DNA of 64,000 bases from a virus (Duplodnaviria > Caudoviricetes), in the IMG/VR virus record IMGVR_UViG_3300025410_000009; one strand, given 5' to 3'. Numbering within the stretch: the stretch's first letter is position 1; every line of letters begins with the position of its first letter. Below the pieces are notes generated by a model. It was not told the origin of the DNA. It was given only the letters and a program-made list of their open reading frames with translations, and did no database searches. This document shows, in pieces, positions 1 to 49,608 of this stretch. Both the position numbers and the translations under genes were made by a program.

Positions 1-119
1 TTTTCAGTCGAGACCACTATTTCACAGTCAGGCTGATACTTGTTGTACAAGGCTCTAACGATCCCGGTGGACAATATGACATCGCCCAAGGCCTGTTGGC
101 GTACTACCAAAATCTTCAT
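1..119 (-). CDS. Glycosyltransferase family 9 (heptosyltransferase-like), partial; 3' part runs off the window start
   Basis: Manual translation from ATG at 119 gives MKILVVRQQALGDVILSTGIVRALYNKYQPDCEIVVST, matching the WaaC/WaaF-type N-terminus (ILV...LGDV). ATGA overlap with the stop of the upstream methyltransferase. Not in the ORF track. Confidence 0.7.
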   Translation of the reverse strand, partial: MKILVVRQQALGDVILSTGIVRALYNKYQPDCEIVVSTE

Positions 120-1354: not shown

Positions 1355-1355
1355 G

Positions 1356-27226: not shown

Positions 27227-27577
27227 ATGGAAGCAAGAAAGATGTGCCCATGTGGTGCAAACCCAGTGGCAGTTAATTATATCAAACAAGGTCGCACACA
27301 CTATCGTACCCTGTGTACCCCGTGTATACATAAAGGACGAAAGAGTAAACCGCCAGCACCCAGCTGGTTTCGGTCAGGGTATAGAAAAAAACCACATTGT
27401 GAAAAATGTGGTTTTAAGGCCAAGTATCCCGAGGATCAACTTAGAGTGTTTTATCTAGATGGCAACTTGAAAAACAACACCAATGTCAATCTCAAAACAA
27501 TTTGTTTGAATTGCCAACCTGAGGTATATCGATCTAGGCTACCTTGGGCTGCTGCTGTAATTGTACCAGATTTTTAA
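27227..27577 (+). CDS. Zn-finger protein with a degenerate HNH motif
   Basis: CPC, CTPC, CEKC and CLNC plus VFYLDGNLKNNTNVNLKTICLNC. Start moved to the ATG at 27227. Confidence 0.6.
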   Translation: MEARKMCPCGANPVAVNYIKQGRTHYRTLCTPCIHKGRKSKPPAPSWFRSGYRKKPHCEKCGFKAKYPEDQLRVFYLDGNLKNNTNVNLKTICLNCQPEVYRSRLPWAAAVIVPDF

Positions 27578-28190
27578 TTTGATCGTGCAGTTCGTCAATG
27601 GTGCCATCATTGGTCAGTGTTGCATCAAACTCGGTACCAGCCCATGATGATTCACTGGAGTGAATGTTTAAACGTTCAATTTTGACCTTGCTCAAGGCCC
27701 ATGTGGTATTGCCAACTGGCCCACGATTTACACTGGCTGCAGCATCAAACCATTCAGGTTCGCTGCCACGACGTATACGAACCACAATGCCTCCGGCGGC
27801 ACGTATGGCTTTAATCTCGTTTGGAAACCTGCAATCACTGATGACAACGTCGGTACGGATCTTACGCAATTTGTTTTCTAGGCTAGCAATCCAGATGTCG
27901 TCGTGGAAGCCTTGACGGCAAACTTCTGTACCCCAATGTTGCAATACCCAGCGTGGAGTAAGCTGAGGCATGTCAAGGCGTTGGCTCCACCAAGGGTCCA
28001 CTTGTTCGCGCCAGGCACGTGCACCTGGGGTTAGACCTTCTAGGTGCTGGCGATCCCACCCAAATATCAATGCCACTGCATCTTTAAGACTTGATGCAAA
28101 ACTCTCTCGTTGAAATCCATACGAACTTACCAAGTAATCGGCTGCAGTATCCTTGCCTGAGCCAATAAAACCTGTGATGCCAATAATCAT
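27534..28190 (-). CDS. gp1: Deoxynucleoside monophosphate kinase (T4 gp1-like)
   Basis: MIIGITGFIGSGKDT P-loop, FASSLKD, TPRWVLQHWGTE, VISDCRFPNE. Confidence 0.88.
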   Translation of the reverse strand: MIIGITGFIGSGKDTAADYLVSSYGFQRESFASSLKDAVALIFGWDRQHLEGLTPGARAWREQVDPWWSQRLDMPQLTPRWVLQHWGTEVCRQGFHDDIWIASLENKLRKIRTDVVISDCRFPNEIKAIRAAGGIVVRIRRGSEPEWFDAAASVNRGPVGNTTWALSKVKIERLNIHSSESSWAGTEFDATLTNDGTIDELHDQIKNLVQLQQQPKVA

Positions 28191-30726: not shown

Positions 30727-31926
30727 ATGCCACGTCTCAGTCTCTGGCGGGAAAATTTCTCGAATGATTACAAATACATTGATCGCAACATCAGCGAACA
30801 ATTCACTGTGGGCGGAACTGGCGTATTGGTACACAAATACCTTGGCACCAAAACTGATCCAACTTCTAACAATGCCGAAATTCCCAATTACCCAAGTCAA
30901 AGTGCACAGAACATACAAGACTTGCTGTTTTTGGAAAACCGAGATCGCAAATACGATACCAGTGTGTACAGCATGCGCGGTATCTATCAAGTCAGTGACA
31001 GCGACTTTGACCTGACTCAGTTTGGTTTGTTCTTACAAACTGGAACTGTGTTTATGACCTTCCATATCAACGACATGGTGGCCACCTTGGGACGCAGAAT
31101 AATGAGCGGCGACGTGTTGGAACTCATGCACCTTAAAGACTACGAAGCATTGAATGATTTGCCAGTGGCCTTGAAACGTTTCTTTATTGTGGGCGACTGC
31201 AGTAAAAGTAGTGAAGGTTTTAGCCCCACTTGGTGGCCGCATTTGTGGCGTTGCAAAATCAGTCCGTTGGTGGACAGCCAAGAGTACAAAGACATCTTGA
31301 ACTTGGTAGAAACCACAACCGATGCTGCCGGCAACACAGTGCCTGTTGGTTCTTTGAGCACCTTGTTAAGCACCTACAACAAATACAGCAACATCAATGA
31401 TGCTGTGATTGCACAGGCCGAAGCCGACTTGCCAATGAGCGGTTACGACACCACAGTGATTTATGTCAAACCACTGACACTGAACACCCAAGGCAACATA
31501 GGAGATCCATTGGGACTAAGCGCAGACAATATTTCTACCATAGATGCATCGCTCACAACCATCAGCAGCGACAAGAGCATAGTAAGCCCAGATCAAAAGG
31601 TAAAAGGTTATCTAGCCGGCGACGGACTAGCACCAAACGGATTGCCAGTGGCATCGGGTATCGCGTTCCCACCAAATCCCATTGCCGGCGACTACTGCCT
31701 GCGTGTGGACTATTTGCCAAATCGACTGTTCAGATATGACGGCAACAGATGGACCAAGGTTGAAGATGCGGTGCGTACCAACCTTACACCCGGTGCCAGC
31801 GATAATCAAACTCAACGCAGCAAGTTTGTCAACAACACACGAACTCACACCAACAGTGGTGGCAACCAAGTACCTAATTTGCAGGGTCTTAGTAACGCAC
31901 TCAAACCGCAAGCGGATAATCTATGA
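30727..31926 (+). CDS. gp14: Neck/head-closure protein (gp14-like)
   Basis: LLFLENRDRKYD, QFGLFL; preceded by GCTAAATA (30700-30707) and coupled to the gp15-like gene. Confidence 0.65.
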   Translation: MPRLSLWRENFSNDYKYIDRNISEQFTVGGTGVLVHKYLGTKTDPTSNNAEIPNYPSQSAQNIQDLLFLENRDRKYDTSVYSMRGIYQVSDSDFDLTQFGLFLQTGTVFMTFHINDMVATLGRRIMSGDVLELMHLKDYEALNDLPVALKRFFIVGDCSKSSEGFSPTWWPHLWRCKISPLVDSQEYKDILNLVETTTDAAGNTVPVGSLSTLLSTYNKYSNINDAVIAQAEADLPMSGYDTTVIYVKPLTLNTQGNIGDPLGLSADNISTIDASLTTISSDKSIVSPDQKVKGYLAGDGLAPNGLPVASGIAFPPNPIAGDYCLRVDYLPNRLFRYDGNRWTKVEDAVRTNLTPGASDNQTQRSKFVNNTRTHTNSGGNQVPNLQGLSNALKPQADNL

Positions 31927-33314
31927 CCACAGCCTATACCACTTTTTTCTACGATAGACAAATACGTAGATTCTTACAACAATTCATTCGAATGATCAGC
32001 AACTTTCAAGTCGAAATGGGCAGTGATGCCGCTGGCAATCGAGTGCTACAGCGTGTGCCTGTGTTCTACGCCGATGCCAGTCGCCAGGCCAGCCAAATCT
32101 TGCGCGGCAACAGCGAGAATACCATCAAGAGTGTGCCGGCCATGGCTGTGCACATTGCTCAGATAGTGTATGATCGCGAACGAGTTCAAGACCCTACATT
32201 TGTCAGTACACTGAATGTTAGAACCAGAGAGTATGATCCTGCCACTGGTCAGTACACCAATCGACAGGGCGGTGCTTACACAGTCGAACGTTTAATGCCA
32301 GTGCCGTATAAATTGACTTTGAAAGTGGATGTGTGGACCAGCAACACCGAGCAAAAACTCATGTTGTTGGAACAGCTGATGATTTTGTTTAATCCAGCAC
32401 TGGAAATACAGAGCACCGACAACTATGTGGACTGGACCAGTTTGAGCTATGTGTTGTTGACCGACATCAGCTGGACCAATCGCAGTATTCCAGCCAGTAC
32501 CGAAGAAACCATTGACATTGCATCCTTGACCTTTGAGTTGCCAATTTGGGTCAGTGCTCCAGCCAATGTCAAACAGCTGGGTGTGGTACAAAAAATTGTC
32601 AGTACAGTATTTGATGCCAACGGTGCCCTGTTACCCGAATCATTCAACGACGATGGTAGCCCAGCATCAACATCTACACAGATGACCAATGCAGCTTACA
32701 CTTTCTTGAATTATAATGTATACTATCAAGGTAACACCTTGCAACTGATGAAAACCACAGCCGCTATAGAATTATCGCAATCACACCACCAGTGGGCACC
32801 CTTGGTTGATCAGTACGGTAAACTAAAAAATGGCATAAGTCAAATTAGACTCATGCAGGCCAATGGATCTGAAGTGTTGGGCACAGTGGCCTATCACCCC
32901 ACTGATGGCTCGTTGTTGCTGTTTACACCCTACAACGACACGCTGCCAGTAAATACTCTGGATCCAGTCAATGCCATCATTAACCCACAAAATGTCGACA
33001 TTACCAGCACTGGTCTATTGAATCCTGCAGTTAGAACAAGATACTTAATCTTGCACGGCATTGGGTCAGTGTACAATACCGATGCTGCAGCCATATGGAA
33101 CAATCACGGATATCCTCAGCTGATAGCCAACGCCAACGACATCATTGAGTACACTGGCACACACTGGATCGTGATATTCAACAGCCAAGACATCAAAGAT
33201 GTGCACTATGTTACAAATCTAAAAACTGGTACTCAGTATCGTTGGCAAGATGGCGGCTGGGCCAAGAGTGTTGAAGGCGAATACAGCGCCGGCAATTGGA
33301 GTTTTATTCTGTGA
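31923..33314 (+). CDS. gp15: Tail terminator / sheath stabiliser (gp15-like) with a C-terminal extension
   Basis: FFYDRQIRR...F.RM.SNF, VPVFYA, MPVPYKL, QLLEQ-like LEQL..LFNP. Confidence 0.75.
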   Translation: MTTAYTTFFYDRQIRRFLQQFIRMISNFQVEMGSDAAGNRVLQRVPVFYADASRQASQILRGNSENTIKSVPAMAVHIAQIVYDRERVQDPTFVSTLNVRTREYDPATGQYTNRQGGAYTVERLMPVPYKLTLKVDVWTSNTEQKLMLLEQLMILFNPALEIQSTDNYVDWTSLSYVLLTDISWTNRSIPASTEETIDIASLTFELPIWVSAPANVKQLGVVQKIVSTVFDANGALLPESFNDDGSPASTSTQMTNAAYTFLNYNVYYQGNTLQLMKTTAAIELSQSHHQWAPLVDQYGKLKNGISQIRLMQANGSEVLGTVAYHPTDGSLLLFTPYNDTLPVNTLDPVNAIINPQNVDITSTGLLNPAVRTRYLILHGIGSVYNTDAAAIWNNHGYPQLIANANDIIEYTGTHWIVIFNSQDIKDVHYVTNLKTGTQYRWQDGGWAKSVEGEYSAGNWSFIL

Positions 33315-33733
33315 TCGAGAGTACTGGTGCACTGATTTACTGTACTCAGACCAATAGATATTTGTTTTTACTACGCAACGGTAGCAAGTATCAAGGTACT
33401 TGGGGATTGCCGGGCGGCAAACTAGAAGCCAATGAGTTGGTCAGTGTGGGGCTAGCTAGAGAAATTGAAGAAGAACTTGGCGGGGTCATTCCCGGCTGCA
33501 AGTTGATACCGATTGAAACATTTACCAGTGACAATGGCAAGTTTGCTTATCACACATTCTTAATTCCAGTTGAACAAGAATTTGTACCCTTTTTGAATCA
33601 CGAGCATAGAGGCTATGCGTGGGTACGATTAGAAGATTATCCCAAACCGTTACATCCGGGAGTTTGGCGCACCATTAACTTTGACATAGTGTCAGCCAAG
33701 ATACGCACCGTGGTGGCCGCAATCAAGGCGTAA
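33311..33733 (+). CDS. Nudix hydrolase
   Basis: Nudix box GGKLEANELVSVGLAREIEEELG; probable GTG start at 33311. Confidence 0.88.
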   Translation: MIESTGALIYCTQTNRYLFLLRNGSKYQGTWGLPGGKLEANELVSVGLAREIEEELGGVIPGCKLIPIETFTSDNGKFAYHTFLIPVEQEFVPFLNHEHRGYAWVRLEDYPKPLHPGVWRTINFDIVSAKIRTVVAAIKA

Positions 33734-33920
33734 AGAAATCAGGAAATTGGGCAATGGCCCAGGCCAGTGCGTCAGTTTCATCATCAAATTTGCCACCATG
33801 ATCGCTGTGGTGTGGTTGTCGTACCACTTCCACACCACGTTCCAGTATGGTCAAACCAGTTTTGTCATCGTATGTATAGGTGTATTGTTCTTTAAGGCGC
33901 ATACAATATTTATCACTCAA
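33723..33920 (-). CDS. Small protein, paralog of 42626-42853
   Basis: VVRQPHH...DDETDALAWA motif. Confidence 0.6.
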   Translation of the reverse strand: MSDKYCMRLKEQYTYTYDDKTGLTILERGVEVVRQPHHSDHGGKFDDETDALAWAIAQFPDFFTP

Positions 33921-36609
33921 CAGTAAAAGTGCTGGATCCTATGTGTTTGCATAACACAGTGGTATCTGCATATAATCGGAATCCGCGTGTGCGTGCCTTG
34001 GTACAGAAATCAATATCCTCAGATATGGTGTTGGCATGATCAATTGCTGAGTGATACACAAAATGTGGGTACGGAATAGCTCTAAATACCTCGCCCTTGA
34101 TCAAGGCGCAGCCAAAGCCGCAACTGGCAATTTCCACTAATCCACGCCCACGAATCTTTTCGTAAGGTATGTGTGTGACTCCACCGCGATCATTGGGTTC
34201 ATACACTTCCAAGGTATGACGTCCAGGAATACGCTGTATATACAGACCAGACACAATGTCACAATCATGTGCCAACAGTTTGGACAGCGTATCGGGCGGG
34301 AAGGCCATGTCGCTGTCAACTGCAAACAAGTAATCATAACCTTTGACCACCCAGTCAGCAATCAAGTTACGCACTTGGTCAACATTGTAGCCGTAAAAAT
34401 ACTGGAACACAGCTTGGTATCCTGCAGGTATGACTAAATCATAAATGCTCTTGAATGTTTCAGCTTCAATATTTCTAGCTGTGGGAATGGCAATCAAGAT
34501 GGTTTTCTTTGCTTGTGCTGTAGGTGTTGGTGTTGCCACTATAGTTGGACTTGGTCGACGACTGATCACTGCAGCATTGATGTTTTGTGTAGTGGCATTG
34601 ACCTTGTAGTCGTTCAAGGGATTGACATCGTTGTAGTTGTACACAATGTCTTGTAGGCAACGTACTTGATCGGGATCGGCTGCTTCGATCAAACTGTAGA
34701 ATGTGCTGCCATCGCCGCCAGCACCATACCAGTTGCCAGCATCGTCTTGGAAGTTGCTGTCGGGAATGCCTGTGATCAACCGCTGTTTAAATGTACGCAG
34801 ATGTGTATAGGGCAATATCCAATTGAACTTGTGTTCGCGATAGGCTCGGCGTTGGCGTATGGCTTGTGGATAGGGCTGGCTGATCAGGGGAATGTTGTCG
34901 GCCATGCTCCAGCATGAACCGTAAGTGAATTCGGTATTGCCATCGTATACTGCATTGTAGTAAGTAAAGATGGTGTTGTCGTTGACTAGGCTGTCGTCGC
35001 CATCTAGTATCATGACAATGGATTCGGGATCGGGTAAAGATCTAAACACCGATAATTGGTTGGCCACTGCACCACGATTTTCAGTGTTTTCAATCACAGT
35101 GAATTTGGCTCTGATGTCATCGGGTAGTGCTGCCAGTGCGGCATGCAGGTTGGTTGATGTGGCATCAGTGCTGGCATCGTTTACCAGGTACACTTGATAG
35201 TTGTCATAGTCTTGTGCTGCGATACTGTCAATACATCTGGCGATGTAATTTTCGCAGTTGTAGAAAGTGCTCACTACCACAATGGGCTGTTCGCGACCGG
35301 GGCGATACGATTCCAGTTCAATAGTGTTGTGAAATCTGCGGCCGTAAATCTTGTGTATACGGCGATTGATTTGACTGACCTCACGATATTGGTCACGTGG
35401 CAAATATGCACCAATCTTTTTGTAAATGTGCTGTTGCCATTGTTGTGCCACGGTGCCCCATGAAGCTATGTCCTTGACAATGTTGCAGTAGTATTGTTTT
35501 TGCTGATGCAGGTAACGATCATTGTAGGCCCGTACAGTCATTTCAACAAACTTGTCAATTTGTGCATCTGTGTTGATATCAGGGAACAAGTTGTTGGGCT
35601 CTACTGGATAGTCTATTAGGTAGCAGGCACGCTCTAGTGCCACTTCTTCTAGCGCACCAAATCTACAGGTCAAGATTGGGGTATTGTACAACAGGCTTTC
35701 CAGTGCACTGATACCGTATGTTTCAGGAAACATGGCCGGGTAAATGGTGTAACTGGCCTGTGCCAAAGTTTCAGCTACCACACGCTGTGGTACAACTCCA
35801 GTGAACTCCATGTCCAAGGCCAAATTGGCTGGATCTGAACTCATGGCACGCCATTCAACTTCTTGTGCATCAGGTGCTGCAGTTGAACCGAATTTGTAAA
35901 AGCCACCTAAGATTTTTAATCGTGCTCGAGGCAGCAGTTTTTTGACTCGAGGCCACACACGTTTGACCAAGACTGACATGCCTTTGCTGACTGCAGCATT
36001 GTACACAAACAGGTCAGGATCCTTGGCCGTGATGTCTACTTCGGGTATGTAGTTCACTGCACCATTGCGTGTCATGAATATTTTGTTTTTGAGCACTTCA
36101 TAGTTGCGACGACGACCATGCTGGCAGTTGGTCACATATGTGGTATGGAAGTCACTGAGCGTAAAGATGTCGGTGATGCGATTGCTGACTGCCAATTCTT
36201 CAATTAGGTTGTCGCCCAAGCAAAAGGTGTCATGCATCCACAGTATACGCATCTTGGCGCGACTGACAATTCGATCATATAGATTCATACCAGCATAGGG
36301 CATGGCACGACCATCTCCCAAGCGGCCATAGTCTCTGGGATCGGTAAACGGAATCACAGTTCTAGAACTGATGACTACATCAAACGTCCAGTCTTGTGCT
36401 AGTTCACCGAGCAGTCGATAAGTGACTCCGTCGTAGACACCAGGCCGTGCAGTATCCGAGCAGTTGTTGAAAACTGTAACGTCAAAACCCAGCTGTTGTA
36501 ATTCACGTGCCATTAGTGTTGCGGCACTTTCGCTTCCACCCAAACCTTGTTTGGCCAAAGTAGACCCATCGTAGGGTATACCAATTATGTCGATGATGGC
36601 AATATTCAT
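33913..36609 (-). CDS. Multi-domain glycosyltransferase (GT4 + GT2 + GT2-like fusion)
   Basis: GLGGSE, WMHD, ETYGISALE (GT-B/GT4); STFYNCENYIARCIDSI...VNDASTD...ILDGDD (GT2); IAIPT...RN..A...LFAVDSD...GFGCALI...EDIDFC (GT-A). Start moved to MNIAII. Confidence 0.88.
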   Translation of the reverse strand: MNIAIIDIIGIPYDGSTLAKQGLGGSESAATLMARELQQLGFDVTVFNNCSDTARPGVYDGVTYRLLGELAQDWTFDVVISSRTVIPFTDPRDYGRLGDGRAMPYAGMNLYDRIVSRAKMRILWMHDTFCLGDNLIEELAVSNRITDIFTLSDFHTTYVTNCQHGRRRNYEVLKNKIFMTRNGAVNYIPEVDITAKDPDLFVYNAAVSKGMSVLVKRVWPRVKKLLPRARLKILGGFYKFGSTAAPDAQEVEWRAMSSDPANLALDMEFTGVVPQRVVAETLAQASYTIYPAMFPETYGISALESLLYNTPILTCRFGALEEVALERACYLIDYPVEPNNLFPDINTDAQIDKFVEMTVRAYNDRYLHQQKQYYCNIVKDIASWGTVAQQWQQHIYKKIGAYLPRDQYREVSQINRRIHKIYGRRFHNTIELESYRPGREQPIVVVSTFYNCENYIARCIDSIAAQDYDNYQVYLVNDASTDATSTNLHAALAALPDDIRAKFTVIENTENRGAVANQLSVFRSLPDPESIVMILDGDDSLVNDNTIFTYYNAVYDGNTEFTYGSCWSMADNIPLISQPYPQAIRQRRAYREHKFNWILPYTHLRTFKQRLITGIPDSNFQDDAGNWYGAGGDGSTFYSLIEAADPDQVRCLQDIVYNYNDVNPLNDYKVNATTQNINAAVISRRPSPTIVATPTPTAQAKKTILIAIPTARNIEAETFKSIYDLVIPAGYQAVFQYFYGYNVDQVRNLIADWVVKGYDYLFAVDSDMAFPPDTLSKLLAHDCDIVSGLYIQRIPGRHTLEVYEPNDRGGVTHIPYEKIRGRGLVEIASCGFGCALIKGEVFRAIPYPHFVYHSAIDHANTISEDIDFCTKARTRGFRLYADTTVLCKHIGSSTFTVE

Positions 36610-36669
36610 GCATTTATTTACTGTGTGCCGAAAGGGTATCATAAATTTTGATTCGAAAAAATATCTGAG

Positions 36670-36699
36670 TTGACATTTTTACCCTATAAATATTACTAT
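36670..36699 (+). promoter_or_regulatory. TATAAATA late promoter (36685-36692), overlapping a possible TTGACA sigma70 element, upstream of the carbamoyltransferase
   Basis: Exact late consensus. A divergent AGTAAATA at 36615-36622 serves the GT fusion gene. Confidence 0.6.
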
Positions 36700-36719
36700 C
36701 AATTAACAGGAATTTCAAT

Positions 36720-38543
36720 ATGTCAGTTTGGATAGCAGGTATCACACGCGGCCACAACGGGGCCGTTTGCCTTTTACGAGATGGTGAAATTGTGTTTGCC
36801 ATTGAAGAAGAGCGGTTGACTCGACTAAAGTATGACGGCTCGCCCATGGCAGCAATGACCAAGATTTTAGAGTATACTGATCGTCTAGACTACATGGTCA
36901 TGGCACATACTGATCAGCTGGGATCGCAAGGAAAAGTTGATTATACTGCAGAAGATGTGTACACCAGTCTAGCCAGAAAATTAAAATTAATTGGGCCTAT
37001 TAATAGAGACTTACCGCTAAATTCAAACAACACCATTGCCCATCCGCAAGTGATTGATTTGGGCACCATGCATCATCGTTTACATGCTGCGTGTGCGTTC
37101 TATCGTTCAGGATTTGATCAGGCCACAGCAGTTATAGTTGATGGCGCCGGAAGTGTATATTGGCGTGGAAATGATCGTCAGTGGGAAGTTGAAAGTATTT
37201 TTACCTGTAGTTACCCAAACATACTTGATACTGTGTTTGCACATAGAGCAGGCAAAGGCCCATGGGCCAGTAGCTATTTCAGCAAATTTAAAGATTCAGA
37301 CGCACCACCAGATGCAAATACATTTGAGTTATTAGATGATGCATCTGTGGGCATTGTTAAAGCCTACGAAGCGGTGACATCATATTGCGGTTGGGGCGAA
37401 ATTGAGGCTGGTAAGACCATGGGTTTATCACCATATGGGCGACCAAATGCAAATATTCCGCCCATCTATAACGATGCTGCCGGCTCTTGGATACACGGTA
37501 ACCGAGATTTATTTGTCACCAACTACCCGCAAGCGGCTTATGTAAACATTGGAGAATGTCCAGAATTAGACGACCCAGCCGAAGTACGAGAATCTATAGT
37601 CGATGTGACCATGCTACAAAATCGCAGAGATCTTGCGTATGCAGTTCAAACACAAAGCCAAGAGGCGGTATTAAAAATTATACTCAAGGCTGTGGAAAAA
37701 ACTGGATGTAAAAATGTTGTACTGTCTGGCGGTTATGGATTAAACTGTGTTGCCAACTATTACTACCTAACTAAACTAAATGAGCTGGGCATTAATCTTT
37801 ATGTTGAGCCCATCAGCAGTGATGCAGGAACCAGCATTGGTGCCGCGCTGTTTGTTCACCATAGTATAATGAATACCGAGCGTCCAAAACCTAGGGCATC
37901 AAGTTTGTACTTGGGTTTTGAATACACATATTCAGCTGATGATATTCGTGCTGTGGCCGAAAAGTATCAAGCTGAAACAAGCACGGTGACCAATCATGAT
38001 GTGGTGCAGTTGTTACGCAACCGTAACATTGTGGCGGTGTTCCGAGGTCGTAGTGAAAGTGGCCCTAGAGCACTGGGCAATCGCAGTATCTTGTTTGATC
38101 CCACTGTGCCCAACGGCAAAGATTTTGTCAACAGCGTTAAACATCGAGAATATTTTAGACCTTTTGCCGGCAGTATCTTGCACGAACATGTCAACGAGTG
38201 GTTTGACATGCGCGGCATGGAAGAGAGCCCGCACATGATGTATGCTGTCAACTGCCAACCCGGCAAAGGTGAGCTTGTTCCCAGCATTATTCATGTGGAC
38301 GGTACTTGCCGTATTCAAACAGTCAAGCGTGAACAAAATCCGCTATATTACGATTTGATATCAGATTTTTATGCCGAGTCGGGTGTTCCTGTTATTTTTA
38401 ACACCAGCTTTAACCTGGGCGGCGAACCTTTAGTGGAAACACTGGATGATGCTGTACGCACTTTGGCCAATAGCGATATTGAATATCTGTATCTCATGGA
38501 ATTCCAAACCCTAATTACTGTAAAAAATCATACTGGAGATTAA
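36720..38543 (+). CDS. O-carbamoyltransferase (NodU/CmcH/NovN family)
   Basis: HNGAVCL, EEERLTRLK, HHRLHA, IVDG.G, GKTMGLSPYG, GGYGLNC, GPRALGNRS, NTSFN..GEPLV. Confidence 0.92.
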   Translation: MSVWIAGITRGHNGAVCLLRDGEIVFAIEEERLTRLKYDGSPMAAMTKILEYTDRLDYMVMAHTDQLGSQGKVDYTAEDVYTSLARKLKLIGPINRDLPLNSNNTIAHPQVIDLGTMHHRLHAACAFYRSGFDQATAVIVDGAGSVYWRGNDRQWEVESIFTCSYPNILDTVFAHRAGKGPWASSYFSKFKDSDAPPDANTFELLDDASVGIVKAYEAVTSYCGWGEIEAGKTMGLSPYGRPNANIPPIYNDAAGSWIHGNRDLFVTNYPQAAYVNIGECPELDDPAEVRESIVDVTMLQNRRDLAYAVQTQSQEAVLKIILKAVEKTGCKNVVLSGGYGLNCVANYYYLTKLNELGINLYVEPISSDAGTSIGAALFVHHSIMNTERPKPRASSLYLGFEYTYSADDIRAVAEKYQAETSTVTNHDVVQLLRNRNIVAVFRGRSESGPRALGNRSILFDPTVPNGKDFVNSVKHREYFRPFAGSILHEHVNEWFDMRGMEESPHMMYAVNCQPGKGELVPSIIHVDGTCRIQTVKREQNPLYYDLISDFYAESGVPVIFNTSFNLGGEPLVETLDDAVRTLANSDIEYLYLMEFQTLITVKNHTGD

Positions 38544-38544
38544 C

Positions 38545-39669
38545 TTGACACGACCACGAGCATATTTCATTAACGGCGGCGCTGGCCGTGTGATTGCATC
38601 TATTCCAGCGTTTGAACAATTGGCCAAAGTGGACAAAGACTTTATCATTGTTTGCGAAGGCGGCAGCGACCTCTATCGTGGGCACCCAGTGTTAGACCGC
38701 AGAGTATTTGAACACTGGCACAAGGGACTGTTCAATGATCACCTCAAACATCGTGACTTGATCACCCCCGAACCCTACCGCGTATGGGAATACTACAATC
38801 AAAAATGTAGTCTAGCGCAGGCTTTTGATATTGCCATCAATAACCAAGGTGTTCGCAATTTGCCGCCACCAAGTTTGCATTTAAACAAAATGGAAATTGC
38901 AGATGCTTACAAAATAACACAGGATATTCGTAGCAAGCTGGGGTTTGAAAAATTAGTTGTTGTGCAGCCGTTTGGTCGTAGTGTCAGCAACAGTGGCGGT
39001 TTGATTGTGGATCCCACATCAAGAAGTATTGCTCAGCAAGATCTAATAGAGCTAGTGAATATCTTGAAGAAAGACTATGGTGTTGTTGTCATGAGCGAAT
39101 TGGGCGATGTGCTAGGCGACAGCAATCAGGGAGTGGCCCAGCCCAGAATTCCGCATATACGTATTTGGGCAGCGGTAATTGAGTTATCAGATCACTTCAT
39201 TGGCTGTGACAGCGTGGGTCAACACATAGCTCGTGCACTGGGCAAAACTGCCACTGTGGTCACAGGATCAACATTTCCCATCAATGTAAGCTATCCCGAT
39301 TGCAGCGATTTTGACATTATTGATGCTGGTGCTAAAACAAGACAGTATAGTCCCATTAGAATCTCCATGGAAGATCATATCGAGCGCAACAACGACCAGT
39401 GCATGGAACTGACTTCAGACATGAAATCACAGATCTTGAAAAGTGCTAGAAAACGATTGGGTAAATCAGTTAAGTCAAGTGCAAAAAATACAACATTGTC
39501 ACCAAATTATACCAATACACACTCGCACCATGAGCATGTTTTAACTTGCGACACTGCAGTAAGACCTGAACCTGGTTTTGCTATGAATCCGATTTCTCAA
39601 ACTATAACTGCAGAAAACACCTACATGAAGCCAGCAGAGTCTATCACACTAACTGCTACCGGTGTTTAA
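38545..39669 (+). CDS. GT9-like (GT-B) glycosyltransferase
   Basis: TTG start. FIGCDSVGQHIARALG matches the GT9 C-terminal motif; N-terminal GGAGRVIASIPA. Confidence 0.65.
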   Translation: MTRPRAYFINGGAGRVIASIPAFEQLAKVDKDFIIVCEGGSDLYRGHPVLDRRVFEHWHKGLFNDHLKHRDLITPEPYRVWEYYNQKCSLAQAFDIAINNQGVRNLPPPSLHLNKMEIADAYKITQDIRSKLGFEKLVVVQPFGRSVSNSGGLIVDPTSRSIAQQDLIELVNILKKDYGVVVMSELGDVLGDSNQGVAQPRIPHIRIWAAVIELSDHFIGCDSVGQHIARALGKTATVVTGSTFPINVSYPDCSDFDIIDAGAKTRQYSPIRISMEDHIERNNDQCMELTSDMKSQILKSARKRLGKSVKSSAKNTTLSPNYTNTHSHHEHVLTCDTAVRPEPGFAMNPISQTITAENTYMKPAESITLTATGV

Positions 39670-40406
39670 CCAGTCCACTGCTGTCGAGATTGGCTTAGTA
39701 GTTGATTTGGAGCTAAAGAAGCTGATGGATTTACATAAGCCGATGTCAAGAATATAAATGTGGTGCCACCACTATTAATATTGCCATCGGTTGACAGCGA
39801 TACACCGCCGCTGGTGTTGATAGTTAGGAATGCGGTAACTGAACTGGTTACTGGGGTAGACATCCAGGTTATTGGCACTGAAGTAAATGCCGATCCCGTA
39901 GTAGGATAATTCCAAGTTGATACTATAGCCAAGCCACCATCGTAGTCAGGCATGGTTGTAGTGGTTGCAATGGTTAACTCATTTATAGGATGTCGACGAG
40001 CATCAGCAAAGACCACTTGTCCTTCCATGTACGGAGTCCAAGATCCGGTTAAAGGTGTATTAAATGTCCAAGGACTATTGCCATTGTAACTGGCAGCATT
40101 GTAAATAGCAAAATCTAATTCAATGATACGTCCCTGATACCAGTAGTCCATGCTAAAATTAAGACTACCACGAACCAGCCGCGAATTGGCCAATTGTAAA
40201 TTTGCTGACCACGGATTGGTGGGATTTCCGTGTCCGTATAGTACTACATTGTCTGCAGGGTAACCCGATGGAACAAACTCAAGCGAGTCTTGAGTTTGAC
40301 TTATAATATTACCCCACCCAGCAACAAAGACTGGGTTACCCGTAACAGTTATTTGTAGTTCCTGATTCGGATTAGGGTAACTCGGATTTAATTCACCAAT
40401 TGGCAT
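39666..40406 (-). CDS. Hypothetical virion protein
   Basis: 246 aa, Thr/Ser/Asn-rich, beta-type composition. Confidence 0.55.
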   Translation of the reverse strand: MPIGELNPSYPNPNQELQITVTGNPVFVAGWGNIISQTQDSLEFVPSGYPADNVVLYGHGNPTNPWSANLQLANSRLVRGSLNFSMDYWYQGRIIELDFAIYNAASYNGNSPWTFNTPLTGSWTPYMEGQVVFADARRHPINELTIATTTTMPDYDGGLAIVSTWNYPTTGSAFTSVPITWMSTPVTSSVTAFLTINTSGGVSLSTDGNINSGGTTFIFLTSAYVNPSASLAPNQLLSQSRQQWTG

Positions 40407-40418
40407 ATACCGTCCAGG

Positions 40419-42623
40419 TTACGCGGCTGCTACAGTACCAACAATCTTGGCATTGGCGCTAGAAATAACCACAATACCCACAATGGTATCAGCTGATGTA
40501 GATGTTGTAACTGTGGCTGCATAAGTGCCATTGTTAAATGTAATACCCGGAGTTGCAGTTTGTCCCACAATTGACAACGTGACTGTGGTAGCTATACGCT
40601 GTCCTGCATAGTTATACACATTGACTGTAATGTTACCGTTTATGTTACTACCAGTATACACAAAACTAGTGGTAGGTGCAGTAATTATCAAGGTCTCGCC
40701 GACACTGGCTGAAATAACATCAATGTAATTTGATGTCACGTTAGATGTCAAATTAGCAGTAGTATAAACTGTGTTAGCAGTCCAACCACCATTGTTGTTA
40801 ATAGTTGTTGTATCTACCACTTGTGTAGCCCAACGACCGTTGTGATCTTTAAACAATCTGCTGGCAATGTAAGGCATGGTGCTTTGATATTGATACAGCC
40901 CGGTTGTGGCATTCAGGGTCAACACAATGTCGTTACCAAATGTAGCACCAGCATATACTGTGTTCCAGTAGGTGTCCAAGGGGCAGAAATATCTAGGTGC
41001 ATAGGTTGCTAGTGATACATAGCCTAGGTAATAGGCATTGAATCCAACATCATCTAGGCTCCAGCTCCATACTCTAAACATGGCACCAGCACCAGAATCC
41101 AAGTTAAATGTATTAGCAATACTCACTAAACCGGTACCGTTGGTGTTATACACGCCCATGTGCAGGCGTTTGACACTGTTGGTGTCTACGCTGTACCACA
41201 CACGATTGACAGTTTGTCTACGGAAGCTGGCATTGTTCAATTGACTGTTAGCAGTGCCGTTGTGGCCCAGTGCAGTATAGATTGATGTAATCTGCGCTGC
41301 GGTCATTGACTGTAAAGTGTAGGCTTGAGCTGCTGCTGCACCAGTTGACGAGGTAAGAGTGTATCTACTGATGGTCATGGTATTAGCAGTATCTGCACCA
41401 CCAAATGCAATGTGGTAGAATCTATAGGCCACTGTGTCATCTTGGTCCGGCTGTGATGGAATTATTAGTCCACTAATACCTTTCTTGATGTTGTAAACCA
41501 CTGTGGTCACAGTGGTATTGGCATTATATTGACGCAAGGTCAAACGCACGTTTCCAGATGTAGTGGTGTCTACCCCTTGTACACCGCCGTTAAGAGCATT
41601 GTAGTGGAAGTACCATTTGAACGGAGGTGCATTTTGTATCAATGTTCTAACACCGTATTCAGCAGTACCGCTGGCAACGCCATAGTTAACGTAATTCCCG
41701 TAAACATTATTTGAGCAGACCCCGCTAAAACTACATGTAGAAGCAACACATAGATTGACCCGACAAGTAGTACCATAGTATAATTGATCAGCTATTGAAT
41801 TTGATTGTAATCCGGCAATGGTGCATTGAGCAGGAAAATTAACAAGAGCATAGTTACAACTACCTCCTCCCCCTTGATTACATGGGCAAACGGCATTCGG
41901 TACTGTATAATTTGTGGGTGTGTCACCGTAGGTGTATTCAGGCATGGGGAAACAATTGGCATAGCAATTGGCACAGCATCCTTGTACGAATGCCAATTGA
42001 TACATGTTTGATTGTGGCACAAAGCAAGAAAAATTCCCACCAGTGTCCTGTACTATCAAATAATTATACATGGCACAACAGTTAGTGGCGTTATTGCAAC
42101 CTGAAATTGAATAACAACTAATGCTGCCGTACGGCAATGCTTGTGTGTTAGTGTTACTGGGTGTAGGACATACCAATGTAATAATCCCATTCCATGCAGC
42201 ACAGGTTTGGCAACTACCAGGCAAAACGCAGCCGGTTAGGCAAGCAGTGCTGGTGCTGGTGTTTATTTGATAACATGCTGGGCCTTGGCAAGTTTGATTT
42301 TTAAAAGTTGTAATATTATTAACGCTTTGGTTAGTGCCATAATACAAAAAGCAGCCGGCTGCGTACTCACCACTGAATCTACTGCCCAATAAGTCAAATG
42401 TGCTACCTTGGTATGTGGGTTCAAACAAGCTGTCTACTGCCAGCGGGGCCACCGTACAGCCCAAATCAATACAGGCTGGATTATATTGGTAGTTGCCTAC
42501 CTGTTCCAAACTGTTAGAGACTGTGTAAAATGCTCCATTGATGGTGTAATTGGTGCCACGATAACCATACTGTATGGTTTTTTCTGTTGGTGGTGGTAGA
42601 TATCTTTGATAAAACTTTGCCAT
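40419..42623 (-). CDS. Virion-like protein with a Cys-rich N-terminal domain
   Basis: 27 Cys in about 253 aa (nt 42473-41715), then a beta-rich region and an Ig-like C-terminus. Confidence 0.65.
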   Translation of the reverse strand: MAKFYQRYLPPPTEKTIQYGYRGTNYTINGAFYTVSNSLEQVGNYQYNPACIDLGCTVAPLAVDSLFEPTYQGSTFDLLGSRFSGEYAAGCFLYYGTNQSVNNITTFKNQTCQGPACYQINTSTSTACLTGCVLPGSCQTCAAWNGIITLVCPTPSNTNTQALPYGSISCYSISGCNNATNCCAMYNYLIVQDTGGNFSCFVPQSNMYQLAFVQGCCANCYANCFPMPEYTYGDTPTNYTVPNAVCPCNQGGGGSCNYALVNFPAQCTIAGLQSNSIADQLYYGTTCRVNLCVASTCSFSGVCSNNVYGNYVNYGVASGTAEYGVRTLIQNAPPFKWYFHYNALNGGVQGVDTTTSGNVRLTLRQYNANTTVTTVVYNIKKGISGLIIPSQPDQDDTVAYRFYHIAFGGADTANTMTISRYTLTSSTGAAAAQAYTLQSMTAAQITSIYTALGHNGTANSQLNNASFRRQTVNRVWYSVDTNSVKRLHMGVYNTNGTGLVSIANTFNLDSGAGAMFRVWSWSLDDVGFNAYYLGYVSLATYAPRYFCPLDTYWNTVYAGATFGNDIVLTLNATTGLYQYQSTMPYIASRLFKDHNGRWATQVVDTTTINNNGGWTANTVYTTANLTSNVTSNYIDVISASVGETLIITAPTTSFVYTGSNINGNITVNVYNYAGQRIATTVTLSIVGQTATPGITFNNGTYAATVTTSTSADTIVGIVVISSANAKIVGTVAAA

Positions 42624-42625
42624 TA

Positions 42626-42853
42626 TTATACTCCGGGTGTGCTGTCAACGTTGTTGTTGTCGGTTTCAGGTGGATCAAGAAACAAATGAGACATATGAGT
42701 CAAGGCCCAATCTCTAGCTTCTTGTTCGTTTTGCCATGGCACAGGATCACCCCAGGTGGGACGCAAGGGTTGATGTAACACATCCTGCCCAATTGAAGGG
42801 TCGCGAACAATCAAAATGTTATTTTGAAATATGATCTCATGTTTAACTGCCAT
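42626..42853 (-). CDS. Small protein, paralog of 33723-33920
   Basis: VLHQPLRP...WQNEQEARDWA motif. Confidence 0.6.
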   Translation of the reverse strand: MAVKHEIIFQNNILIVRDPSIGQDVLHQPLRPTWGDPVPWQNEQEARDWALTHMSHLFLDPPETDNNNVDSTPGV

Positions 42854-45045: not shown

Positions 45046-48000
45046 TTAAGCAAACTTGGTTTGGCTGGCAAACACCACATACGCAGCTGATCCAGTTTTG
45101 GTCACTGTGTACGAATAAATGTCAATTGAATTCGCGTTACCCGAGCTGGGTGCTGTGCCGTTTTGCCACTTGGGCGTAACAGCAGATCCGTCAACTTGGA
45201 ATGCCGAAGCATAGTAGGCAGTAGCACCCTGTGTGACCATGAACGCAAAGCTCACTGATTGGCCGGTTGCTAGAGCACTGTTCAACAAGGTACTGGAACT
45301 AAACGACAAGTTCACAGTCCAGTTGGCCGAAGCATTGGCAGTATAATACAGCACCGACTGACTGTTGATGTAGTAGTTGATGGTACCAGTTGCGGCTGTG
45401 GCTGATACTGTGGTGGTTTCAGCCATGTTGGTCATCACCGTGGCAAACGAACTGGCACTGCCGTTGAATGTCTGTGTAGATGTCCAAGTGCTGCTGATGA
45501 CCGGAACGCCATTGGCATAGTAGTAACCCGAACTGTACACACTACCAGCAAATATGTTGCCAGCAATGCCAGCACCACCCGAGACCTGTAGTGCACCTGT
45601 AGTGGTGCTGGTACTTGTAGTATTATTACTGGTAATGATCTGTAGTGCGGTTGTACCTGAGAATGAGCCAGTCGCACCTATTGATCCGGTATAACCTATT
45701 GGGCCAGTGGCACCTATTGATCCGGTATAACCAATTGATCCAGTATAACCTGTCGTGCCAGTAGTACCAACGGATCCAGTATATCCTACTGATCCATTAT
45801 AGCCCACACTACCGGTATATCCCACTGATCCAGTATAACCAGTATTCAAATAGGGAGTACCGTTGGCATAAAAATGACGATCTGAGTAAATGTTGCCGGC
45901 AAAAATGTTACCAGTAACACCCACACCGCCAGCAACTACTAGAGCACCTGTTGTTGTGCTTGTACTAGCAGTTACAGTCACGATCGACACGTTGCCAGTG
46001 GGTCCACTGATGACCATGGGCTCAGAATAAGTTTCGCCGCCAACTGGGCCAGTGAAGGTCCAGAATTGCAAGCCGCCGCCGACTGTGCCTTGCAAGGCGC
46101 CACCACCATTGCTGTTGGCAGTCATTTGTAAACCGCCACCTGATGTGGTAAAGCTACCGGTGCCCACGCTGTTCAGTGTTAGTGAAATAGCAGAGTCGCT
46201 GGCCTGTGATATAGTACCTATACTGGCTTTTGAACCAGTTATAGTTAACCCGCTTGCAAACACGTTACCAGCAAAAATGTTACCAGTAACACCCAAACCA
46301 CCCGCCACAGTCACAGCACCTGTAGTGGTACTGGTGCTAGGGGTTGCAGTTCCTCCGCCATTAAATGGAGTCGCAGCATTGTAAGTAACTGATCCCGAGT
46401 TAGTCAATGAATAATTATTAGTGCTAGAATCAGTTATATAATTGCCGGAACTAGCAACACTTAATAACAATGTAGTATTAGGAATTGCTGTTAACGGTTG
46501 GGTAGGTGGAGTAAATGACGAAGTATATACCGCAGTTCCGTTAACAAACCGGAAATTAGTCATATATCCACGAAGAGATTGATTTCCGCTGCTTCCGTCT
46601 GATCTAGCAATATATTCTGGTGCACCACTGTCGTATATACTTCCAGCGTAAGTATATGTTGTGCCCTTTTGCCCATTCAAATACATGTTGAATGAACTAC
46701 CGTTCCGTACTACTGCCACGTGGTACCATGTATTTGCAGTTAGTGCAGGTAATGTTGAATCATCATTGGGATTAATTGCCCAAGAAGAAGAACTATCTGC
46801 AACTTGTAGGGTCATTCTATTAGAAGAACTGTATACACGCCACGCTATTCCTGCATAGGTTCCTACTTCTCGTTTACCGTAAAGACCGTTTTCTACTCCC
46901 AGTGTTGTTAAGTATACCCAAGCTTCTATTGTAAAATTATTGCTACCTAATACAAATGCTGAATTATTTGCATAGGTCAAATAATTACTACCGCTAAAAC
47001 TTAAACTGCCACCAGTAGCGAAACCAGTGGGTGCGACCACGCTGACACCAGTAGTTACCACATTACCAGCAATGCCAGCACCACCTGAGACCTGTAGTGC
47101 GCCTGTTGTGGTACTTGTACTAGGTGTGGTGTTGCTTATGATAACTTGTTGTGCAGTTGTACCTGAGAATGTGCCTGCACTTCCTGTGTAACCCACGCTT
47201 CCAGTATAGCCCACGCTACCTGAATATCCCACTGATCCAGTGTACCCAGTGCTGCCAGTGTAACCCACATTGCCTGTGGTGCCCGTTGAGCCGGTATAAC
47301 CTATCGATCCGGTATAACCAGCTGATCCAGCGTAACCCACGTTGCCTGTGGTGCCCACACTACCGGTATACCCAACGCTTCCAGTGTAACCTGTGGTGCC
47401 TGTTGAGCCGGTGTATCCAACACTTCCAGTATAACCCACCGATCCATTATAGCCCTGTGATCCAGTGTAGCCAGTTGATCCGTTATATCCCGTGCTGCCG
47501 GTATAGCCGGTTGCACCTGCGCTGGCATATGATACGCCGTTGGCCCAGAACACACCTGATGTGGTAATGACACCAGCCGTGGTGGAAATATTACCCGATG
47601 CCACTATGGCGTTAGCATATTCAGTACTGGTTATGGTTTCATAGTTCTGTGTGGTGATGTTGCCAGTGACCACCAAGTTACCACCCACATACAAGTTGCC
47701 GGTAATACCTACTCCGCCTGCTACAGTCACAGCACCTGTTGTGGTACTGGTACTGACTATTGGTGCACTGGCTCCATTAAATGGTGTTGCAGCATTGTAT
47801 GCAACCGATCCCACATTGGTCAATGTTAAATTATTAACACTGGAATCGGTTATATACGCACCTGAACTGGCCACATTTAACAATAGGGCTGTGTTTGCGA
47901 TGGCAGTTAAGGGTTGTGTGCTTGGTGTGAAATTGGTGGTGTATACTGCGGTACCATTTACAATTCTTAAATTACTAATATATCCTGTAAAGAGTGTACC

Positions 48001-49599
48001 TGCCGATGAATTATTTCTGCTACCAATATAGTTAGTAACACCGGATACTGTATAATTTGTTGTATCAGTAGCACTACTGACAGCAATACCATTCTTATAT
48101 ATAGTACCAACTGAACCATTTCTTACGTAGGCAACATGGTTCCATACGTTGGTTCCAAAATCGGTAGTAGAGGCATCCACCACAAGGCTAGAAGATCCGT
48201 TATACCATTCCAATTGCCCGTTTGATGCTGTGCCTCCACCCCATACAAATGCCCATGCTGTGGTATTTGTTGCATCTCTAGCATCAAATAAATATTGTAA
48301 ATTTTGTGCAGATGTAAAATATACCCAGGCCTCAACTGTAAAATTATTTGTACCAAATTTATTGGTATTCCCGGGAGAGTAAGTTAAATACTGAGTTGTA
48401 CCATTAAAGCTCAAGCTGCCACCGGTTGAAAAACCAGCTGGTTGTACAACTGCGATACCAGTGCTGTAAACATTACCAGCAATACCCGCACCACCCGATA
48501 CAATTAGAGCACCTGTTGTAGTGCTGCTACTAGCAGTGGTGTTGCTTATGATAACTTGTTGTGCGGTATTACCTGAGAATGTGCCGGTGCTACCAGTATA
48601 TCCTGTTGAACCAGTATAACCAATTGATCCAGTATAGCCGGCGCTGCCCGAATAACCCACATTACCTGTGATGCCCGTCGATCCAGTGAAACCAATTGAT
48701 CCAGTATAGCCGGCGCTGCCAGTATAACCCACATTACCTGTGCTACCAATTGAACCAGTGTAACCAATTGATCCAGTATAGCCCTGTGATCCCGAATAAC
48801 CTACATTACCTGTGGTACCTATGGATCCAGTATAGCCAATTGATCCAGTGTATCCAGTAGTGCCTGTGCTGCCGGTATAGCCCACATTACCTGTTGTACC
48901 TATGGATCCAGTGTATCCAACAGATCCGTTATAACCTGTTGATCCCGCATAGCCCACGCTACCAGTGTATCCAATTGAACCCTGTGAGCCAGTATAGCCC
49001 ACGTTGCCTGTAGTGCCTGTGCTGCCAGTATAGCCAATTGAGCCAGTGTAGCCCACACTACCCGAATAACCTACATTACCTGTGGTGCCCGTCGAACCAG
49101 TATAACCTGCACTTCCGGTATAACCCACACTACCAGTGTAACCTGTACCTGTTGAGCCAGTATATCCAGTTGACCCCGTGCTTCCAGTATAACCAATTGA
49201 TCCAGTATAGCCGGTGGCGCCCGTGCTGCCGTTGTAGCCTGTAGTGCCTGCGCTTCCAGTATAACCTGTTGCGCCCACTGATCCAGTAAAGCCAGTTAAG
49301 CCTGTGCTGCCTGTGTAACCAGTAGCACCACCTGAGAATCCAGCTCCATTGGCGTAGAAGTAGTTGGTGCTATACACATTACCAGCAAAAACATTACCAG
49401 TAACGCCTACACCGCCAGCCACAGTGAGTGCACCTGTAGTGGTTGTGGTACTAACTGAATTACCAGTAACAGCAAGAGTGTTAGTAGAAGTTATTGGTAT
49501 AGCCACCCGAGTCCAAGCGCCGTTGGTGCTAGAATAGGTGTATGTGATGCCGTTAACTGTTGCAATTGCGCCGTTAGTTGGTGATGCGGGAAAACTCAT
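45046..49599 (-). CDS. Long fibre protein: GYTGS triplet repeats plus two LamG/ConA-like domains
   Basis: [38 protein letters not shown] and [13 protein letters not shown] motifs, flanked by triplet repeats. Confidence 0.82.
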
Positions 49600-49608
49600 G
49601 TTGTATCT

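Follow-up and report, generated by a model that had tools for sequence, protein, structure and literature searches.

A Carbamoyltransferase and GT9-Like Gene Pair Among the Fibre Genes of a Large T4-Like Phage: a Candidate Late Glycan-Tailoring Module

Gene Content of the Locus

The window described here, a stretch of 64,000 nucleotides (nt) from the virus record IMGVR_UViG_3300025410_000009 (Duplodnaviria; Caudoviricetes), carries two adjacent genes among its virion genes, one for an O-carbamoyltransferase and one for a protein related in fold to glycosyltransferase (GT) family 9 (GT9). A third gene, on the opposite strand, encodes a three-domain GT. In a preliminary description of this DNA, the three genes had been interpreted as a glycosylation and carbamoylation system coating the phage fibres. 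The features at the centre of that proposal are as follows:

33913-36642, minus strand: three-domain glycosyltransferase, 909 amino acids (aa); seen by Pfam, PHROG and Atlas
36685-36692, plus strand: late promoter motif TATAAATA of T4 type, 27 nt 5' of the carbamoyltransferase ATG
36720-38543, plus strand: NodU/CmcH/TobZ-family O-carbamoyltransferase, 607 aa; Pfam, phrog_1601 and relatives in the PDB
38545-39669, plus strand: GT9-fold (heptosyltransferase-like) protein, 374 aa, TTG start; phrog_8954 (E 8.7e-133), Foldseek and Atlas

The GT9-like gene starts 1 nt past the stop codon of the carbamoyltransferase gene. The viral record as a whole spans 210 kb, with a CheckV completeness of ~60%, and contains neck, tail and fibre genes of T4 type; for related records of 65-146 kb, CheckV estimates a completeness of 19-41%. 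From these figures, the full genome is probably ~350 kb in length, that is, of jumbo size. No psbA gene was found in the 210-kb record, and the name "cyanophage" is thus unjustified for this phage from the record alone. A megablast search of the region against phage records gave no match.

Enzymes of the Locus

The 607-aa protein is predicted from its sequence to be a full O-carbamoyltransferase of the NodU/CmcH/TobZ type. It comprises a Kae1-like N-terminal domain (PF02543, Carbam_trans_N; 87 bits against a cut-off of 24) and a YrdC-like C-terminal domain (PF16861, Carbam_trans_C; 196 bits against a cut-off of 27), and it matches phrog_1601 with an E value of 9e-162. The best solved relatives are 7xb6, followed by NovN, and then GdmN and TobZ. 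Alignment with 7xb6 showed that the G-H-x-x-A, H-H-R-x-H, D-G and G-G-x-x-L-N-C motifs are kept, as are the G-P-R-A-L-G-N-R-S and K-H-R-E-x-F-R-P-F-A stretches of the C-terminal domain. By analogy with TobZ, we take these motifs to serve in metal and nucleotide binding. The NodU model NF041651 scored 130 bits against a cut-off of 1000, and the protein is thus a member of the family and not an equivalent of NodU. The preliminary description had spoken of a divergent carbamoyltransferase paired with a GT9-like protein. Both family assignments were borne out; the divergence was not, as the carbamoyltransferase is 58% identical to a protein of phage Sf-FS3 and typical of its phage family.

The partner protein escapes profile searches. 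No Pfam match was obtained at E 0.01, the model TIGR02201 reached 17 bits against a cut-off of 170, and PF01075, searched across the whole record, found only another GT9 gene outside the window. Likewise, a profile built from the family returned only chance sirtuin matches among PDB sequences. Structural comparison was more informative. An AlphaFold2 model built on 25 homologues (pLDDT 61, a moderate value) matched 3tov best among PDB entries searched with Foldseek (E 2.5e-6), along with WaaF (1psw) and WaaC; TibC was a weak match (E about 3e-3, TM score 0.3-0.4). Many of the AlphaFold DB clusters matched by this model are named GT9 or heptosyltransferase, and the Atlas model of the protein gave TM scores of 0.79-0.93 to a viral cluster carrying PF01075. 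Within the stretch matched by TIGR02201 lies a GxDSxGxH motif (residues 220-227), of which G220, D222, S223, G225 and H227 are invariant in the 25 homologues. We equate this motif with the GT9 nucleotide-sugar motif G-x-D-S/T-G-x-x-H. The loop after the first strand reads N-G-G-A-G-R, and its Arg15 is invariant. Judged from the model, the 374-aa protein is GT9-like in predicted fold and in donor site, without being a member at the profile level. As a side observation, residues 301-374 (39445-39669) hold a conserved basic R-K-R-L-G-K-S segment followed by a variable, low-confidence tail of 45-75 residues, often with a Cys-Cys pair.

The 909-aa protein had been described as a three-domain GT, and all three domains were recovered by Pfam, PHROG and Atlas. 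The first, of GT-B fold and GT4/GT1 type, matches Glycos_transf_1/Glyco_trans_1_4 at residues 211-338; the second, a GT-A domain of family GT2, matches Glycos_transf_2 at residues 455-606 (E 1.5e-20). The third, at residues 710-907, matches phrog_1574 and gives weak GT2/GT21 matches when scanned alone; in the Atlas, residues 690-909 scored 0.97, with small viral GT2/Anp1-like proteins as neighbours. Both GT-A domains show DxD-type motifs, and the related loci L011 and L012 were the only ones in which full-length homologues turned up. None of the three enzymes has segments resembling transmembrane helices, and all are acidic or neutral. A complex prediction for the carbamoyltransferase and the GT9-like protein scored 0.00, a value that speaks neither for nor against binding.

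Late Promoter Motifs

The hexamer TAAATA starts 24-36 nt upstream of 11 of the 49 gene starts in the window, where ~0.2 would be expected by chance, since only 47 copies occur on both strands of the 64 kb. The genes behind it include neck, structural and fibre genes, the carbamoyltransferase gene, and the dehydratase gene of a distant sugar operon. The TATAAATA before the carbamoyltransferase gene is a perfect T4-type late motif, and GGTAAATA stands 28 nt upstream of a gene for a 338-aa collagen-like fibre. Conservation in relatives is marked: of 49 distinct related upstream regions, 48 have (N)ATAAATA ahead of whichever gene of the pair leads, and a -35-like box, found in just 5 of 50 such regions, is not conserved. 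The operon therefore fits a T4-type late unit, in which a TATAAATA-like -10 element stands some 25-35 nt ahead of the start and there is no -35 box. A TTGACA-N18-TACTAT arrangement overlapping the late motif was considered as a promoter and rejected, as it is unconserved in relatives.

A late TAAATA motif had been claimed for both the pair and the three-domain GT. The claim holds for the operon and fails for the 909-aa gene, which has no TAAATA within 100 nt 5' of its ATG (36642). The sole copy nearby lies inside the open reading frame (ORF), 7-12 nt before Met12, and is thus too close for promoter function. A weak sigma-70-like site is present on the strand of this gene, and such sites are no commoner in the region than in shuffled sequence.

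Linkage and Distribution of the Gene Pair

The linkage of the two genes was quantified at 80 IMG/VR loci fetched with the GT9-like family alignment and on 8 contigs of metagenome-assembled genomes (MAGs) from a species-genome search. A carbamoyltransferase gene on the same strand lies within 2 kb of the GT9-like gene at 79 of the 80 IMG/VR loci and on all eight MAG contigs (87/88); the sole locus without the partner is cut by a contig end. The pairing is thus obligate in this set. The GT9-like family has 4116 homologues in metagenomes. Among 185,579 species genomes it gave eight matches, all of them MAG contigs that carry the same pair and are likely phage, so the family is essentially viral.

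The pair is embedded among fibre and virion genes in several lineages. On L096-L098, a tail fibre gene (phrog_9851) lies upstream and genes for virion structural or fibre-like proteins (phrog_5838) lie downstream. On one MAG contig (L097 3034-6740), two GT9-like paralogues flank the carbamoyltransferase gene and are followed by genes for 625-aa and 1832-aa virion proteins. At L006 and L007, fibre genes stand on both sides. In these two loci and in L011 and L012, which are the closest relatives, the genes of the pair and of a multi-domain GT are intermixed with fibre genes of collagen-like and Laminin_G type; the multi-domain GT of L006 combines GT1, GT2 and Methyltransf_21 domains. Homologues of the GT9-like gene without a carbamoyltransferase partner also occur in 79-kb myoviruses of Aeromonas and Vibrio that are unrelated, and there they are set in the tail module. 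The homologue of Aeromonas phage HJ05 is flanked by a fibre-like protein and the tail sheath, that of Vibrio phage K479 by a 1952-aa protein and a 1643-aa tail protein.

In S-SSM7, P-SSM2 and 11 of the 80 IMG/VR loci, the next genes after the pair serve nucleoside diphosphate (NDP)-heptose synthesis (nucleotidyltransferase, sugar kinase, GmhA and epimerase). This full heptose pathway in relatives bears on a rival explanation that we regard as rather unlikely, in which the enzymes would remodel the host envelope by placing a carbamoylated sugar on lipopolysaccharide (LPS) or another surface glycan late in infection, for example masking receptors so that progeny skip debris and infected cells. 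The GT9 family is known above all for LPS core heptosyltransferases, and WaaC, WaaF and 3tov are the nearest solved folds. Furthermore, the inner core of Pseudomonas aeruginosa bears 7-O-carbamoyl-heptose (PMC7168646), and Sullivan et al. (2010) placed the phage genes among "LPS genes" (PMC3037559). The WaaC/WaaF enzymes (CAZy GT9) and the P. aeruginosa modification share with the phage pair the GT-B fold, the GxDSxGxH motif and the combination of an O-carbamoyltransferase with an enzyme of heptosyltransferase type. The phage protein differs from them in lacking a PF01075 match, in an apparent Arg in place of a catalytic Asp, in having no membrane or LPS context, and in being confined to phages, where it is a late gene among fibre genes. 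The genes are not accompanied by a flippase, polymerase, lipid-carrier transferase or membrane segment, cellular genomes are essentially devoid of the family, and a virion role accords better with the late promoter and with the place in fibre operons, those of the unrelated Vibrio and Aeromonas phages included. Moreover, the LPS of marine Synechococcus reportedly lacks heptose and Kdo, which counts against an envelope target.

In marine relatives, the pair is often followed by further tailoring genes. PrnA-like tryptophan halogenases, often two, are encoded downstream at 56 of the 80 IMG/VR loci, and at L004 (12875-20008) a DUF6445 protein, a 2-oxoglutarate (2OG) oxygenase, a HAD phosphatase, a second carbamoyltransferase and a Methyltransf_21 protein follow the pair together with halogenases. 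Such a gene set could tailor a soluble, glycosylated and carbamoylated small molecule, and the nearest solved carbamoyltransferases, NovN, GdmN and TobZ, all tailor antibiotics. We nevertheless consider a small-molecule product improbable, because the halogenase, oxygenase, second carbamoyltransferase and other extra genes were not found in the 210-kb, ~60% complete record though the pair is kept there, because no core scaffold-forming enzyme is present, and because such a product would leave the late motif and the bracketing by fibre genes unexplained.

A further idea is that the genes are inactive passengers ("stuffer DNA"), as Sullivan et al. (2010; PMC3037559) considered for the LPS genes; the island between fibre and neck genes does vary in content. 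Almost no weight can be given to this idea here: there are thousands of intact homologues with invariant motifs, the catalytic motifs of the carbamoyltransferase are intact, and the obligate linkage and the promoter are conserved over 50-70% protein identity.

Neighbouring Genes and Candidate Acceptors

The genes on either side of the three enzymes, together with a separate sugar operon at the start of the window, are the following:

31923-33314, plus strand: gp15-like tail sheath stabiliser or tail completion gene, the "tail terminator" of the preliminary description; phrog_11196 (E 4.5e-88) and phrog_227 "tail sheath stabilizer" (E 8e-18)
33296-33733, plus strand: NUDIX hydrolase, 145 aa; phrog_1198 MutT/NUDIX (E 1.9e-26)
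39666-40406, minus strand: Ser/Thr-rich protein, 246 aa; homologue in L012
40419-42623, minus strand: Thr/Asn-rich protein, 734 aa, presumed fibre or adhesin; homologues adjoin the pair in L011 and L012
42626-42853, minus strand: 75-aa ORF, conserved beside the 734-aa gene; tblastn match in L011
42868-43884, minus strand: collagen-like (GYTGS) fibre protein, 338 aa; Pfam Collagen (E 2.4e-9) and tail fibre PHROGs
45046-55397, minus strand: two giant collagen-like fibre proteins (1517 and 1799 aa) separated by a 130-aa ORF; tail fibre PHROGs for the 1517-aa protein (E down to 7.6e-54), Gly-X-Y triplet counts for both
116-3109, minus strand: separate sugar operon with a dehydratase-like gene, a 251-aa protein and a C-methyltransferase; CTTAAATA 31 nt 5' of the dehydratase start

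The enzymes thus lie, as had been described, between a tail gene and the fibre genes: the gp15-like gene and the NUDIX gene come before them and the fibre genes after. Several related loci have a NUDIX homologue no more than 10 kb away from the pair, and at L006 and L007 a 61-aa gene takes the place of the 75-aa ORF. The 246-aa gene is convergent with the GT9-like gene, and at the stop codons the two share 4 nt (39666-39669), leaving no space for a terminator between them; a 13-nt palindrome is found within the 246-aa gene at 39760-39772. A gp1-like deoxynucleoside monophosphate kinase gene (27534-28190, minus strand; phrog_139, E 1.3e-53) adjoins the neck genes.

Long Thr/Ser/Tyr-rich Gly-X-Y repeats had been noted in the nearby fibres, and counting confirmed them: in runs of at least four, the 338-, 1517- and 1799-aa proteins together hold 323 Gly-X-Y triplets, among them 150 Gly-x-Thr and 84 GYT. 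The 338-aa protein also matches PF01391 (Collagen) at 37.2 bits, above the cut-off of 27.2. The 734-aa protein is rich in Thr and Asn and has 27 Cys residues within positions 51-303; no family match was found for it in Pfam or PHROG, the Atlas search was uninformative and the model was poor. The 246-aa protein likewise had no Pfam or PHROG match. Just upstream of the pair, marine loci encode 280-aa proteins, one to three in tandem, whose Cys content is 10-11%. For example, L025 (6572-9109), with equivalents in L024, L033 and L035, carries three tandem paralogues of ~280 aa that are Gly-rich and contain 10-11% Cys, upstream of the GT9-like gene; an acidic protein of ~263 aa is encoded between these paralogues and that gene. 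Neither the 734-aa nor the 246-aa protein showed homology to the Cys-rich 280-aa or the 263-aa neighbours by BLASTP or HMM, and the likeness is one of Cys density only.

The sugar operon comprises genes for a dTDP-glucose-4,6-dehydratase-like enzyme, a 251-aa protein and an NDP-hexose C-methyltransferase. It continues past the start of the window (L008 1-2788; G000:C1:185100-187887) with genes for a 277-aa GT9 that is Pfam-positive (E 1.5e-14), a 262-aa protein and a 383-aa GT1. The operon looks self-contained, having its own GT9 and GT1 and lying 30 kb from the pair. In five related records, the C-methyltransferase has one 29%-identical homologue (E 4.7e-27) and one marginal match (E 5.6e-4). 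A single noviose-like pathway joining the sugar operon and the pair was rejected on these three grounds (distance, own GTs and rarity of the C-methyltransferase in relatives), and with it the earlier suggestion that operon and carbamoyltransferase together make one carbamoylated, methyl-branched glycan. Elsewhere in the record (G000:C1:35036-36912; L003 1498-3374), a gene for a ThyA-type thymidylate synthase (300 aa) is directly followed by one for a 325-aa NAD-dependent sugar epimerase/dehydratase.

Comparison With Known Systems

The gene pair is already known from cyanophage genomes. Cyanomyoviruses carry the orthologous pair as T4-GC 302/303 (SSSM7_120/121 and PSSM2_307/308; also in S-CAM1, S-CAM3 and Sf-FS3), with 55% and 57% identity to the S-SSM7 proteins. 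As here, the two genes adjoin each other on one strand where the fibre block ends, near the neck genes. The present locus differs in that the carbamoyltransferase gene comes first, the pair is inverted relative to the fibres, the 909-aa GT is added, and no heptose, halogenase or second carbamoyltransferase genes follow the pair. T4-GC 302/303 belong to the cyanophage "LPS genes", to which no function was assigned in the publication (Sullivan et al., 2005, 2010; PMC3037559). New in this analysis are the quantified linkage, the conservation of the late motif and the negative result on co-occurrence with collagen-like fibres.

A mechanistic precedent for protein glycosylation by GT9-type enzymes is provided by TibC and Aah of the BAHT family, which have a GT9-related fold and act in the cytoplasm on Ser residues of repetitive adhesins. 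The phage protein is not a member of that family, as indicated by the weak structural match reported above (E about 3e-3), the lack of a BAHT NCBIfam match and the absence of an obvious Cys4 iron-finger.

Among viruses, multi-domain GTs such as A064R of chloroviruses and the glycosylated fibrils of Mimivirus are well-known cases, and a multi-domain GT architecture recurs at L006. We know of no report of carbamoylation for the virion glycans of mycobacteriophages, chloroviruses or Mimivirus. The mycobacteriophages Che8 and Rita have been described as glycosylating their virions (Freeman et al., 2023, as cited in PMC11256854). In these viruses, virus-encoded cytoplasmic GTs act on the virus's own structural proteins; the enzyme families, hosts and targets are other than those considered here. 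For T4-like phages, nothing comparable to these virion-glycosylating viruses has been demonstrated.

The collagen-like Gly-x-Thr repeats of Bacillus BclA are O-glycosylated. The fibres of the present phage have Gly-x-Thr triplets as well (150, as counted above), but no homologous GTs are encoded and the pair is widespread without such repeats.

The novobiocin pathway employs the same three enzyme classes that are found in this genome, namely a dehydratase (NovT), a C-methyltransferase (NovU) and a carbamoyltransferase (NovN), to build its noviose branch. In the phage, however, the dehydratase and C-methyltransferase genes are 30 kb from the carbamoyltransferase gene in an operon with its own GTs, and there is no sign that they feed the carbamoyltransferase.

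A phage enzyme of the same NodU/TobZ family, discovered by MetaGPA, produces 5-carbamoyloxymethylcytosine (PMC8670742). This raises the question of DNA hypermodification, in which the carbamoyltransferase and GTs of the present locus would act on a hydroxymethylated base to give 5-carbamoyloxymethylcytosine or glycosylated 5-hydroxymethylcytosine (5hmC). It is also known that phage GT clusters attach heptose or Kdo to 5hmC and can be situated near structural genes (bioRxiv 10.1101/2023.12.21.572611). The MetaGPA clade, in contrast to the present gene, co-occurs with dCMP hydroxymethylase, dCTPase and deaminase genes; none of these is found here, where the neighbours are GTs and fibres. The sole ThyA-family gene encodes a genuine thymidylate synthase (298 bits to a solved thymidylate synthase), no C5-cytosine methyltransferase (PF00145) was found in the incomplete record, and unmodified contigs on which GT1 genes flank carbamoyltransferases are noted in the MetaGPA paper itself (PMC8670742). 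A TET/JBP search (PF12851) of the record gave no match and is uninformative, as the profile was silent in control genomes too. In addition, a conserved late promoter is ill-suited to a replication-coupled function. On balance, DNA modification seems very improbable.

Proposed Function and Points Against It

Given the conserved late motif and the position of the pair within fibre and virion gene blocks of several lineages, a virion-protein target is the best single reading. We hold it tentatively: a late glycan-tailoring module acting on a fibre or adhesin protein of the virion explains the locus better than the alternatives discussed above. In such a scheme, the region would encode soluble cytoplasmic enzymes for building and tailoring glycans in a large T4-like phage. 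The GT9-fold enzyme of the two-gene late operon would move a sugar from a nucleotide-sugar donor, which is probably NDP-heptose in relatives with the heptose pathway beside the pair. The carbamoyltransferase would then O-carbamoylate the transferred sugar, drawing on carbamoyl phosphate and ATP via carbamoyl-AMP. The acceptor would most probably be a fibre or adhesin protein of the virion that is synthesized concurrently, and the candidates are the Cys-rich 734-aa protein, the 246-aa protein and the collagen-like fibres. As for the 909-aa enzyme, it may assemble or lengthen an oligosaccharide, either on that acceptor or on a different protein of the virion.

Several observations weigh against this reading. 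The proposed modification of virion proteins draws on gene families and genomic context, and an enzyme expressed late could just as well have the host envelope as its target. In the T4-like cyanophages, the adjacency to fibre genes is largely one inherited island between fibre and neck genes and thus represents few independent events. The invariant Arg15 of the GT9-like protein appears, by a by-eye correspondence, at the place of the catalytic Asp13 of WaaC, which suggests a chemistry or acceptor handling unlike that of the LPS heptosyltransferases and makes the assigned activity a matter of prediction. No heptose-pathway genes were found in the 210-kb, ~60% complete record. Lacking a late motif, the 909-aa gene may be expressed at another time than the pair. 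Finally, the fibres with GYTGS repeats do not track the pair. Only the two closest relatives have collagen-like ORFs within 10 kb of it; Gly-X-Y arrays are almost lacking in the complete S-SSM7 genome and absent from Vibrio phage K479 and two long marine contigs. As the pair is common without collagen-like ORFs, it is not tied to GYTGS-type fibres. P-SSM2 (NC_006883.2, about 19.4-25.9 kb) does carry long Gly-Pro-Thr/Ala/Ser arrays (150 pattern matches), located far from T4-GC 302/303. GYTGS repeats were therefore rejected as a general acceptor of the pair, and the co-occurrence of cassette and GYTGS fibres across genomes that the preliminary description had anticipated is absent outside the closest relatives.

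In sum, what the preliminary description observed at this locus was largely right, and its interpretation is supported in part. A sugar-adding and O-carbamoylating system that coats the fibres agrees with the enzyme classes, the late operon and a virion protein as the best-fitting target; the GYTGS acceptor, the joint pathway with the sugar operon and the late motif of the 909-aa gene have been given up. With somewhat more reserve still, we propose a broader generalization: the phage-only GT9-type enzyme and the carbamoyltransferase may form a widespread late module of aquatic T4-like phages that O-glycosylates fibre or adhesin proteins with a carbamoylated sugar, a heptose where the pathway is encoded, joined in this jumbo lineage by a three-domain GT that may build an oligosaccharide on the Thr-rich collagen-like fibres.

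Catalogues have listed the cyanophage "LPS genes" since 2005 with no role assigned to them. Cultured carriers of the pair exist (S-SSM7, P-SSM2 and S-CAM1) and Escherichia coli makes ADP-heptose, so the question is directly testable. If the proposal is true, it would to our knowledge be without precedent on two counts, as a virion glycan that is carbamoylated and as GT9-type glycosylation of proteins in a virus. Virion glycosylation, so far a matter of mycobacteriophages and giant viruses, would then reach the T4-like phages with an O-carbamoyl sugar chemistry, and some of the most abundant phages of oceans and lakes would possess a post-translational layer acting on host recognition, stability or grazing resistance.

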